Source: an uncultured archaeon (GTDB lineage: Archaea > Asgardarchaeota > Lokiarchaeia > Sigyniarchaeales > SOKP01). Taken from it: 64,000 bases of DNA. This document shows positions 25,103-34,885 of this stretch, in pieces. The position numbers and the translations under genes are program-made. The first letter of the stretch is position 1, and the number at the start of each line of letters is the position of its first letter. The stretch is taken from contig CAZDTP010000001.1 of NCBI GenBank assembly GCA_964508365.1, forward strand, positions 32,001 to 96,000. Reading direction: 5' to 3'. The notes under the pieces are model-generated. The model saw nothing but the letters and a program-made list of their open reading frames with translations, did no database searches and was not told where the DNA came from.

Positions 25103-26329
25103 CTAATTTATTAGGTTCCATGAGGAAACTAAGATAATTAACGCTAGGATTGCAATACAACATAATCCAATCCAAGATAATAAAGCATTTTTTACATAGT
25201 TAATTTTGAACTTGACCGCTTCATGGGGACATAATTCTACGCAACAGAAACAAGTAATACACTTATTCTTATCCCATTTTGGAATATTTCCTTTTTTTAT
25301 CTCATCAGGCGGTGTAATCGCATTAACTGGGCAATTAGTCCAGCAAGTAGAACACAACTTGCATTTCTCTTTATTGAACTTTACTGAGGCTTTAAATATT
25401 GTTTTTCCAATATAATTTGCCAACCATTTTGGTAAAGGCATTGATATTGGTCGAAGTTTTGGGCGTTTAAATTGTCGAAAAACAGATTCAATAGGCTCTC
25501 CGAGAAATTCTACGCTTTCTAAGTCAGTAGTTCCCAATTTCTTTTTTTCAGCTTTTTCTAAATACAATATTTCTTCTGGTTCAAATCCAATTATTTTACA
25601 CACTGCAGTATCAAGAGCAACGCCATCATATCCGGCTAAAATTATATCTAATTTAATCACATCGCCGCTAGAGGGACCTTGGCCTTCTTGACAGTAGTAC
25701 CCATCTATAACCGTTAATTGCGGTTTAGATATTGAATATATATCTACTAATGCCGAACAAAATCGCTCCAAGATTGCTGCTTGAGCATGGGTTTTAGCTT
25801 TATTTGCCAGAAGCACGGTCCCAAACATATTTTTAATACAGCATGTTAAGGTGCATTGCGAGTGGGTTTTAATTTTAGGAATGTTAATGATCAAATCTGC
25901 TTCTTTAATCAAAAGAGAACTCGATATCTCTTTCAATTCGAAAGGATCTTTGACTTCATAAATTACACGCTCAGTTTTTTCAAAAGGTATACAGATTGCT
26001 CCTTCTTCTTCGCAAATATCCTGGATACCACTTTCTTTCATGGCTGTTTCTGTAATCCCGGGTTTTTGACCCCCAGCAGAATCACTTACGTAAATTTTTG
26101 ATGGATTGAATTTTTTTACCCATTGAATCACAGCCCGAACAACTTCTGGATGAGTATTAACTGCTCTCTCAGCTGGTTTACCCATTAAGATATTCGGTTT
26201 TAATAGCACTACCATATTATCTTTTTGCATTAGTTGTTGAGCATTAATAAGTTCAAGTGCTGAAAAAACAGATGATTTTACATCCTCATTTTTAATTTTC
26301 TGAATAGCTACTTTGGTTATATAACCCAT
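25103..26329 (-). CDS. DUF362-family Fe-S protein with 2x[4Fe-4S] ferredoxin domain and C-terminal TM anchor
   Basis: LLKPN, KIKTH, CCIKNMFG, CKLCSTCWTNCP and CITCFCCVELCP. Confidence 0.88.
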   Translation of the reverse strand: MGYITKVAIQKIKNEDVKSSVFSALELINAQQLMQKDNMVVLLKPNILMGKPAERAVNTHPEVVRAVIQWVKKFNPSKIYVSDSAGGQKPGITETAMKESGIQDICEEEGAICIPFEKTERVIYEVKDPFELKEISSSLLIKEADLIINIPKIKTHSQCTLTCCIKNMFGTVLLANKAKTHAQAAILERFCSALVDIYSISKPQLTVIDGYYCQEGQGPSSGDVIKLDIILAGYDGVALDTAVCKIIGFEPEEILYLEKAEKKKLGTTDLESVEFLGEPIESVFRQFKRPKLRPISMPLPKWLANYIGKTIFKASVKFNKEKCKLCSTCWTNCPVNAITPPDEIKKGNIPKWDKNKCITCFCCVELCPHEAVKFKINYVKNALLSWIGLCCIAILALIILVSSWNLIN

Positions 26330-26408
26330 AATTAGTATTCATTTGTAGAAAGTTAAAAGATTTAGCAAAATAAAATAGAAAGAGAAAAAAATATTTAAAA
26401 CTTATATT

Positions 26409-26660
26409 TTATCCGCCAGCCTGCGTAGCCATTACGGTAATTACATCCTTTTTTGGATGAATTCCTATTTTAGCGAACTTTAACTGGTCAGGAAGTACTT
26501 TTCCTTTAAAGATAAATTGAATAGCAAGAATAGGATTAAGTTTATATTCCCGTTGAACCGTTTTTTTAATTTCTGCTATAGATTGGTTTGGATCTACTTC
26601 AATTAATTTAATAGCCTGATCTGGTGGAACACCAGTTAATCTAAAGCGATATTGGGTCGT
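26409..26660 (-). CDS. Eukaryote-type ubiquitin-like protein (83 aa, C-terminal GG), putative ACG start; missing from ORF track
   Basis: Hand translation: (M/T)TQYRFRLTGVPPDQAIKLIEVDPNQSIAEIKKTVQREYKLNPILAIQFIFKGKVLPDQLKFAKIGIHPKKDVITVMATQAGG*. Contains the Ub hallmark FIFKGKVLPD..IGI and a terminal GG-stop. Confidence 0.85.
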   Translation of the reverse strand, partial: TTQYRFRLTGVPPDQAIKLIEVDPNQSIAEIKKTVQREYKLNPILAIQFIFKGKVLPDQLKFAKIGIHPKKDVITVMATQAGG

Positions 26661-26667
26661 GAGTTTT

Positions 26668-26675
26668 TCACATCC
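26668..26675 (-). promoter_or_regulatory. Shine-Dalgarno-like GGATGTGA, 7 nt upstream of the ACG of the Ubl gene
   Basis: 7/8 match to archaeal GGAGGTGA. Spacing is similar to AGGTGA sites ahead of ATG 15812 and ATG 38704. Confidence 0.6.
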
Positions 26676-26901
26676 TTTTTAGTTGTATTTTTTTTTACAT
26701 TATTTAAATTATTACTATAATAATGTGAAAATTTTTAATTAAAAACAAAGGTATTTTTGATTAAATTGAAGTTTAGTTGGTTAAGAATGTATTTTTAGAT
26801 AAAACAAGGTCCAGATTCATAATTCCTTAAAGTCAATCTACCTAAAACTAAAGTATAAGTATAACCAAAAGTATAAATTTCTAAATATCTTTTTAATATT
26901 T

Positions 26902-34144: not shown

Positions 34145-34885
34145 TTATTTTGAACAAAAGCAATCAGGATTTTTTACAATATCAATAGTGTTAAACATTA
34201 AATTTAGCAGATTAACCATAAGTAACTTATTTTCTAGATTAGGCAACCCCAATGATGTTTTAATAACCTCCAAAGCCTCCAAAGTACCCAATATTCCCGG
34301 AGTTACTCCAATCACTGGGAGAGGTCCTTCTTTAGAATCATTAATTTCAGGTTTATTAAAAACACATTCATAACAAGCAGTTTTTTTTGGATCTATGGTA
34401 ATTATCTGACCGTAAAAGTCTTTAATGCCCGCTATGACTGCTTTAATACCATAATTCACCGCTACTTCGTTCACAAGAAATTTAGTTTTAAAATTATCGC
34501 TACAATCAACTATAAAGTCTTTGTTTTCTATATACTTCACGACAGAATTTTCATCTACATATTCACTAAAAACATTAATTTCAACATCAGAATTTAATGT
34601 AGCTAAACTTTCCTTAGCAGCAAGCACTTTTTCTCTTCCAATTTGAGATTCTTTATATAAAATTTGCCTTTGAAGATTGGATATCGAGAGAGTGTCATTA
34701 TCTAAGATGGTTAATTCTTTTATACCTGCTGCTACAAGATAAAGTGCAAAAGGGGATCCTAATCCTCCAGCACCTATTTGTAAGACTCTAATTTTTGATA
34801 GCTTCTCTTGACCCTCTTCACCTATAGAGGGCGACAAGATTTGCCTGGAGTATCTTTTCTTTTGAGCTTCAGTAAGAATTTTCAT
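34145..34885 (-). CDS. ThiF/MoeB/UbaA-family E1-like adenylyltransferase
   Basis: RYSRQI, GAGGLG, LSISNLQRQILY, DCSDN and CYEC..CFC Zn site. Confidence 0.92.
   Translation of the reverse strand: MKILTEAQKKRYSRQILSPSIGEEGQEKLSKIRVLQIGAGGLGSPFALYLVAAGIKELTILDNDTLSISNLQRQILYKESQIGREKVLAAKESLATLNSDVEINVFSEYVDENSVVKYIENKDFIVDCSDNFKTKFLVNEVAVNYGIKAVIAGIKDFYGQIITIDPKKTACYECVFNKPEINDSKEGPLPVIGVTPGILGTLEALEVIKTSLGLPNLENKLLMVNLLNLMFNTIDIVKNPDCFCSK

Follow-up and report, generated by a model that had tools for sequence, protein, structure and literature searches.

The stretch of DNA analyzed here (the window; 64,000 nt, G+C content of about 30%) comes from an uncultured archaeon of the class Lokiarchaeia and lies on contig C1 of a 4.07-Mb genome in 149 contigs that is rated 100% complete. 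Its minus strand holds, from 26409 to 26678, a frame of 89 residues that is open from stop to stop, ends in QAGG followed by TAA, and encodes a protein of the ubiquitin family. Of the 89 codons, one alone, codon 82, is an ATG, GTG, or TTG. A preliminary description, made from the letters of the sequence, had proposed that a eukaryote-type ubiquitin-like protein missed by the open reading frame caller starts here at an ACG codon. Its account of an uninterrupted frame with a TAA just upstream and one late canonical codon agrees with our coordinates, and the gene is indeed uncalled in this genome. We find this ubiquitin as a single copy in its own genome. By eye, a possible archaeal TATA box (TTTAAATA), which would yield a short leader containing the ribosome-binding site, and a possible archaeal terminator flank the gene, which appears to be monocistronic (Table 1).

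The encoded protein is a true member of the ubiquitin family. It matches the Pfam ubiquitin profile (PF00240) with 39.2 bits against a curated cut-off of 25.4, with Rad60-SLD as a weak second, and it is the best of the four PF00240 matches in its own genome. Among its Pfam matches at E values of up to 1, there is none to the ThiS or MoaD families. An AlphaFold2 model built on 40 homologs (mean predicted local distance difference test [pLDDT] score, 92.2) has the beta-grasp fold, with the elements E-E-H-E-H-E, i.e., four main strands around one helix plus a short second helix. In a Foldseek search, the model matched ubiquitin best (template modeling [TM] scores of 0.74 to 0.83, probability of 1.00), followed by NEDD8, SUMO, and the ubiquitin of Caldiarchaeum. 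In the HMMER alignment, a FIFKGK stretch stands opposite the LIFAGK of ubiquitin, which holds I44 and K48, and G82 and G83 are invariant among the 40 homologs. Thus, both the profile match and the structure prediction, which the preliminary description had named as a check for a beta-grasp fold, agree with its assignment to the eukaryote type of ubiquitin-like proteins rather than to MoaD/ThiS. A sulfur carrier of the ThiS, MoaD, or SAMP kind was considered and rejected: there is no profile match, and the neighboring genes (DUF362-ferredoxin and winged helix) have no thiamine or molybdopterin linkage.

By its sequence, the gene itself is not new; it is the published Lokiarchaeal ubiquitin. Public homologs are labeled "ubiquitin-like protein" or "hypothetical protein," and those with a named organism come from Promethearchaeota/Lokiarchaeota (including Lokiarchaeum ossiferum) and, in one case, from Hodarchaeota. 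An ortholog occurs in 53 of 60 related genomes from the genus, order, and class, with 66 to 100% identity, and within the genus the protein is almost invariant. At the 30 orthologous loci compared below, the protein ends in a bare Gly-Gly, in Gly-Gly and a single further residue that varies, or, at one locus, in a 15-residue tail, as expected for a modifier whose tail is trimmed. In the species studied here, the mature protein would need no C-terminal trimming. The 15-residue tail past Gly-Gly, which ends in LFPII, was seen at locus L009 (genome G008) and at L184. In genome G039, the ubiquitin match is broken by a TAA.

It is very probable, based on comparison of related sequences, that the ACG start is real and that this ubiquitin is translated from the ACG at 26660 to 26658. 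The 5' ends of 30 orthologous loci, that of the genome studied here included, were aligned. The codon at the start position is ATG in 20 genomes, ACG in 5 (the present genome, G014, G015, G011, and G002), TTG in 2, ATT in 2, and GTG in 1; the proposed ACG start thus occupies the position of ATG, GTG, TTG, or ATT in 25 other genomes. A table of start codons, to be built by tBLASTn against Asgard genomes, had been suggested in the preliminary description, and the tabulation given here covers these 30 related genomes. Most of the loci have a GTGA-type motif upstream, usually 5 to 7 nt from the start-aligned codon. In G011 and G002 (loci L006 and L007), a TGA lies two codons before the ACG, which makes an N-terminal extension impossible there.

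In all ten pairs of ACG alleles, 8 to 32 of 82 codons differ with 0 amino acid changes, and this synonymous-only divergence shows that the frame is translated and under purifying selection in the ACG-bearing species. Selection had already been suggested from the clean frame, and the absence of nonsynonymous differences agrees with that suggestion. The Pfam match above its cut-off and the orthologs in 53 of 60 related genomes also speak against a chance frame. A sixth ACG allele is found on a public ENA contig, and a pattern scan of metagenome contigs returned seven more ACG copies, from different projects, along with two ATG copies, with 81 to 82 of 82 residues identical. The ACG sequences therefore number 13 (those of the 5 species genomes, the ENA contig, and the 7 metagenome contigs), although some of the contigs possibly come from the same organisms as the genomes. 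A gene tree of 31 coding sequences is nearly unresolved; the ACG labels cluster, a pattern compatible with one or several origins.

The ACG is also placed where a start codon would be expected. The preliminary description had located it 7 nt behind a short upstream sequence, and the position of the Shine-Dalgarno (SD) motif GGATGTGA agrees. Seven of the 8 positions of this motif match GGAGGTGA, which is complementary to the 3' end of the genome's own 16S rRNA; that end reads GGATCACCTCCT. In the upstream regions of 1,355 long ATG genes, the share of G increases from 0.09 to 0.29 at positions -15 to -8, and the most enriched upstream words genome-wide are GAGG, GGTG, GTGA, and AGGT. GGATGTGA spans -15 to -8 from the ACG, i.e., the normal place of this G-rich signal. 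The predicted SD pairing is -9.3 kcal/mol in four of the five ACG alleles, including the one in the window, and -8.3 and -6.5 kcal/mol for ATT, compared to a mean of -4.8 kcal/mol for the ATG alleles. The stronger SD of the ACG and ATT alleles hints at compensation, but the close ATG relatives at L005 and L009 share the strong SD, so that ancestry confounds the comparison.

Two public gene calls for this protein deserve mention. The call P0003 (L151:209-472, plus strand), of the ACG-type allele on the ENA contig, arises solely from a genetic code in which TGA is Trp. It reads the ATG-TGA inside the SD motif as Met-Trp and is an annotation artifact. The call P0004, of 106 amino acids, is longer by 23 residues at its N terminus, presumably because an alternative start codon farther upstream was chosen.

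Starts at ACG, ATT, ATA, and ATC are, as judged from SD placement, domain positions, and orthologs, a habit of the whole genome and genus and not of the ubiquitin gene. Screens by late canonical start mostly returned antisense shadow frames and normal 5' extensions and were replaced by an SD-anchored count. In this count, the codon had to lie 5 to 9 nt after an SD and open a frame with coding-like codon usage; canonical starts had to be absent from the in-frame sequence before it and from the 10 codons after it. Reversed SD motifs are a poor null, as GGAGG is palindromic when read backwards; a codon-usage expectation and a comparison among ACN codons were used instead. The counts were 189 for ATG, 68 for TTG, 30 for ATT, 22 for GTG, 18 for ATA, 12 for ACG, 7 for ATC, 3 for ACT, 2 for ACC, and 1 for ACA. 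Behind an SD, ACG was observed 12 times against 1.1 expected (10.8-fold), and it makes up 12 of the 18 ACN codons, compared to 12 to 13% by codon usage (P of about 1e-7).

The positions of protein domains point in the same direction. In 10 genes, Pfam domains begin 3 to 29 residues after the proposed ACG, ATC, or ATT start. Those with an ACG start and a full domain that begins 3 to 19 residues in encode a response regulator, an oxidoreductase gamma subunit, a threonine synthase, a DsrE-like protein, V-ATPase subunit C, a Nob1-like PIN nuclease, and a NIPA-type transporter. A Ras-like GTPase with an ATC start likewise has its domain within this distance; in an esterase with a proposed near-cognate start, the first Pfam match lies too far in to inform.

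Comparison across relatives confirmed three cases. V-ATPase subunit C (AC39 family) has ACG behind GGTGAT in 19 genomes of the genus, with protein identities as low as 48%; the codon in its place is ATG or, in one case, TTG in other relatives. In the gene for the Nob1-like nuclease, ACG directly follows a TAG stop in 5 orthologs, and ATG stands at the same codon in 16 relatives; a sixth ACG hit, with an ATG beside the ACG, is ambiguous. The gene for aIF1 (SUI1) has ATT behind a conserved AAAGGTTGTGA in 20 of 20 genomes of the genus, and a TGA stands in frame three codons before it; elsewhere in the order, other families apparently use ATA or TTG, as read by eye. aIF1 is the factor that rejects wrong start codons. 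Its ATT start is reminiscent of two autoregulatory cases, bacterial infC with its AUU start and eukaryotic eIF1 with its weak start context.

Dozens of other genes in this genome have a strong SD, at the proper spacing, followed by ATT, ATC, or ATA and without a nearby canonical start (examples are given in Table 1). Identified by eye, they include two Ras-like small GTPases (the first of which was checked with Pfam), an aldolase-like protein, a RuBisCO-like protein, and Kae1. In other metagenome contigs, a conserved 12-codon frame, unrelated to ubiquitin, lies behind GATGTGATC. Its first codon alternates between ATG and ACG, and it reads Met/Thr-Thr-Gln-Tyr-Arg-Glu-Pro-Ser-Pro-Lys-Lys-Ile and variants thereof.

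We propose that the small ribosomal subunit would be placed on the ubiquitin mRNA by pairing of GGATGTGA with the 3' end of 16S rRNA. The ordinary initiator Met-tRNA (anticodon CAU) would then pair with ACG despite a C-A mismatch at the middle position. A pattern search of the genome found an initiator tRNA with the ordinary CAT anticodon and no initiator-like tRNA with a CGT anticodon; ARAGORN, which found 29 tRNAs, missed the initiator. The product would begin Met-Thr-Gln-Tyr, as in relatives, and the efficiency of ACG may be reduced or factor dependent. ACG would be one of several near-cognate starts (ACG, ATT, ATA, and ATC) used by this lineage for many genes, and the unusual start would stem from a relaxed choice of start codons and not from a device that ubiquitin alone possesses. 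A wider scheme is tentative, and we think it rather doubtful: Lokiarchaeial ribosomes would routinely accept ACG, AUU, AUA, and AUC, a set resembling the near-cognate starts of eukaryotes, aIF1 would set its own level through its AUU start, like bacterial IF3 and eukaryotic eIF1, and genes with flipping starts, such as ubiquitin, would be dosage tuned within a start-stringency regulon.

Several points weigh against initiation at the ACG or limit what it would mean. Assembled contigs of four public runs were compared with the start region. In an independent salt-marsh DNA run (X4), assembled Logan contigs match 26414 to 26654 and 26674 to 26800 exactly and break at 26655 to 26673, the 19 bases with the SD spacer and the ACG. 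The gap may be due to low depth (about 3) or to strain variation at the start region. Contigs from RNA libraries (X21, X22, and X24) stop short of the start and are 85 to 95% alike, a level which indicates that they come from relatives. One loose contig end reads as an ATG-type relative. The ACG base in this population would thus rest on the assembly and on other assemblies, and translation from it is deduced from sequence rather than from N-terminal peptides or ribosome profiling. An efficiency of ACG near that of ATG and an output of little protein would both be compatible with the data. The ATGTGA inside the SD is conserved among the ACG alleles, and a start-stop there could contribute to the arrival of ribosomes at the ACG. 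Finally, no E1 or E2 gene adjoins the ubiquitin gene; the E1-E2 clusters lie on other contigs.

Of the alternatives to relaxed start-codon choice, the one that survives best, albeit as an unlikely one, is that the ACG is a regulatory device specific to ubiquitin. A weak start would keep the modifier scarce or make its synthesis dependent on aIF1 levels. Within one genus, this gene begins at ATG, ACG, ATT, TTG, or GTG although its protein hardly varies, as might be expected of such a device, but ATG is used in most species of the genus and in the two closed genomes taken as cultured Lokiarchaeia. The SD pairing of the ACG and ATT alleles, stronger than the ATG mean, looks like compensation, yet it is open to the confounding by ancestry described above for L005 and L009. 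Start stringency may be regulated, since aIF1 itself starts at ATT. However, ACG also serves V-ATPase subunit C, the Nob1-like nuclease, and about a dozen SD-led genes, and with near-cognate starts found genome-wide, no ubiquitin-specific device is needed. The preliminary description had suggested that near-cognate initiation keeps the modifier at a low or regulated level. The first half of this suggestion is retained here, whereas a low level specific to ubiquitin is disfavored, as the same starts serve genes throughout the genome.

Considerably less probable is that ribosomes start at the ATG inside GGATGTGA, halt at the next TGA, and re-initiate downstream, or that they read through the TGA in those alleles that have it in frame. 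Every ACG allele contains ATGTGA, in frame with the ACG at L006, L007, and L151, but the ATG is out of frame at L001, L003, and L004 and is not itself preceded by an SD. At L005, ATGTGA stands before an ordinary ATG start, and the ACG starts of V-ATPase subunit C and Nob1 are without it. Although one public gene call reads ATGTGA as Met-Trp via TGA as Trp, the motif is accounted for as a 7-of-8 match to the SD consensus. Moreover, even if re-initiation took place, the protein would still begin at ACG.

We give still less credence to C-to-U editing of the mRNA, as in plant organelles, which would turn ACG into AUG before translation. Nothing found speaks for it, apart from the fact that it would account for ACG but not AAG or AGG among middle-position variants. 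It leaves the parallel ATT, ATA, and ATC starts unexplained, and we know of no mRNA C-to-U editing in archaea.

The notion that the ACG alleles are silent or dying copies, or that the ACG is a sequencing or assembly error, has next to no probability: the gene lacks a canonical start, is uncalled here, and spans the break in the X4 contigs, but the 13 ACG sequences come from separate assemblies and contigs with differing upstream frames, the alleles differ by up to 32 synonymous codons and no amino acid, and the genome has a single copy of this ubiquitin. On these sequence comparisons, we regard as excluded both the base-call error (ACG for ATG) and the recently lost start or young pseudogene that the preliminary description had listed as options. 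Its further option, one missing A, fails as well, since the upstream GTG is off frame: it lies 11 nt from the ACG in three of the ACG genomes and 10 nt from it in the other two, offsets for which a homopolymer error is no explanation.

Table 1. Features of the ubiquitin locus and of other genes compared in this study. Positions without a prefix refer to the window; the prefix L denotes loci compared here, and C denotes contigs of the genome.
Feature	Position	Strand	Remarks
DUF362 plus 4Fe-4S ferredoxin-domain gene	25103..26329	-	79 nt downstream of the ubiquitin gene; in 19 of 30 loci, at varying distances
Run of seven T, possible archaeal terminator	26385..26391	-	About 20 nt past the stop; read by eye
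Ubiquitin coding sequence	26409..26660	-	83 codons with putative ACG start; TAA stop; product ends in free Gly-Gly
ACG, putative start codon	26658..26660	-	Aligns with ATG/GTG/TTG/ATT of orthologs
Shine-Dalgarno motif GGATGTGA	26668..26675	-	7 nt before the ACG
In-frame TAA	26679..26681	-	Closes the frame upstream; limits an N-terminal extension to 6 codons, none start-like
TTTAAATA, possible archaeal TATA box	26701..26708	-	About 45 nt before the ACG; read by eye
Winged-helix plus zinc-ribbon protein, 450 amino acids	26902..28254	+	Divergently transcribed; adjoins the ubiquitin gene in 29 of 30 loci
Short ThiF/E1-like gene, 246-amino-acid frame	34160-34852	-	7.5 kb from the ubiquitin gene
V-ATPase subunit C	L055:204-1241 = C9:72633-73670	-	Orthologs L121-L150
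Nob1-like PIN nuclease	L056:201-752 = C10:40569-41120	+	Orthologs L091-L116
aIF1/SUI1	L059:267-605 = C25:11566-11904	+	Orthologs L061-L090
Examples of genes with ATT, ATC, or ATA behind a strong SD	L060:204-788 (-), C92:1216-1773 (+), C25:22814-23617 (-), C43:5890-7164 (+), C20:58613-59620 (+)		
Contigs with the 12-codon frame	L154-L158, L161-L163, L165, L166, L168, L171, L172, L174, L176, L178, L179, L181, L185		

The surroundings of the ubiquitin gene are partly conserved (Table 1). The divergently transcribed neighbor encodes a protein that has a winged helix at its N terminus, zinc ribbons at its C terminus, and weak, sub-threshold IBR and UBA hits, and it may be a regulator or partner of the ubiquitin gene. 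As the preliminary description had noted, the ubiquitin gene has no E1, E2, or E3 gene next to it; among ThiF-type genes, the short one of the window lies nearest. The genome as a whole has 5 ThiF, 3 UQ_con, and 7 JAB matches. Three E1-E2 clusters lie on contigs C3, C6, and C31, two of them with JAB proteases, and the C3 cluster carries two further ubiquitin-family genes of its own. The window ubiquitin would most likely be activated and conjugated by one of these three clusters, given their gene content and what is published on homologous systems. A Pfam search of the genome for UEV domains gave no match, but the controls were without a match too, so that this search is unable to discriminate. 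Once conjugated, the ubiquitin would, based on homology and the literature, have UEV proteins of the ESCRT-I type as its readers, in line with what has been reported on its ortholog in Lokiarchaeum.

The consequences for annotation are direct. ACG is listed as a start in no prokaryotic code table, and common gene finders try ATG, GTG, and TTG, so a eukaryotic signature protein is missed outright in these Asgard genomes, as it is here. Elsewhere, the same protein is given a false N-terminal extension or is called under a wrong code with TGA as Trp. Dozens of other genes are likewise affected, with standard gene callers expected to truncate those that start at ATT, ATC, or ATA, and the gene inventories used in arguments on the origin of eukaryotes are distorted. 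A prokaryote that positions its ribosomes by SD motifs yet tolerates the near-cognate set typical of eukaryotes is notable, as is a proofreading factor, aIF1, that has a weak start itself. Direct tests of how start-codon stringency evolved thus become possible in the archaea most closely related to eukaryotes. We infer a relaxed start-codon rule in Lokiarchaeia, of which the window gene is an instance, and for which we found no published description; our literature search returned no paper describing ACG starts in archaea or Asgard.

Among known proteins, the closest counterpart is Lokiarch_37670|Ub of Lokiarchaeum sp. GC14_75, listed in Supplementary Data 1 of Hatano et al. (2022, Nat Commun; PMC9192718), who reported yeast two-hybrid interactions of Lokiarchaeota ubiquitin with UEV-domain proteins. 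Compared by eye, it has the same core and the same QAGG end as the window protein, with few positions differing. It begins with Met, however, and has a 5-residue tail past Gly-Gly, whereas the window copy has the ACG start and ends at Gly-Gly. Eukaryotic ubiquitin and NEDD8 (1ubq and 3dqv) share with the window protein the beta-grasp fold (TM scores of 0.76 to 0.83), the C-terminal Gly-Gly, extreme conservation within the lineage, and equivalents of I44 and K48 in FIFKGK. Compared to eukaryotic ubiquitin, the window protein has about 22% identity, a TQAGG tail in place of LRLRGG, seven more residues, and no polyubiquitin or ribosomal fusion; its conjugation is putative. The ubiquitin of Caldiarchaeum subterraneum (6fnn/6fno; TM score of 0.75) is likewise archaeal and of the eukaryote type, in a genome that also has a JAB/Rpn11-type protease, E1, and E2. 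There, however, ubiquitin shares one operon with E1, E2, RING, and Rpn11, whereas the window gene stands alone beside a winged-helix/zinc-ribbon gene. SAMP, MoaD, ThiS, and Urm1 are also small beta-grasp proteins with a Gly-Gly end and activation by a ThiF-type E1, and a ThiF gene lies 7.5 kb away, but the sequence and fold matches of the window protein are to ubiquitin, SUMO, and NEDD8.

Near-cognate starts themselves have precedents. ACG starts are known in eukaryotes and their viruses (e.g., VP2 of adeno-associated virus and C' of Sendai virus), and bacterial infC starts at AUU. For archaea, a 2020 review named only AUG, GUG, and UUG as starts. Ribosome profiling of Haloferax placed about 30% of newly detected start sites at near-cognate codons, which the authors set aside (PMC7261190). 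The Asgard tubulin AtubA of Kariarchaeaceae was reported to have a "rare ATT start codon" behind a ribosome-binding site, which restored the fold of a too-short annotation (PMC13394414, 2026). AtubA resembles the window gene in coming from Lokiarchaeia and in having a near-cognate start behind a ribosome-binding site; it differs in being one gene, with ATT, for which no ACG or genome-wide pattern was described. In the eukaryotic, viral, bacterial, and Haloferax cases, as in the window gene, a one-base variant of AUG stands at a defined start and is presumably read by the initiator tRNA. What distinguishes ACG here is that it appears to be the sole start of conserved core genes, positioned by an SD and kept across species.

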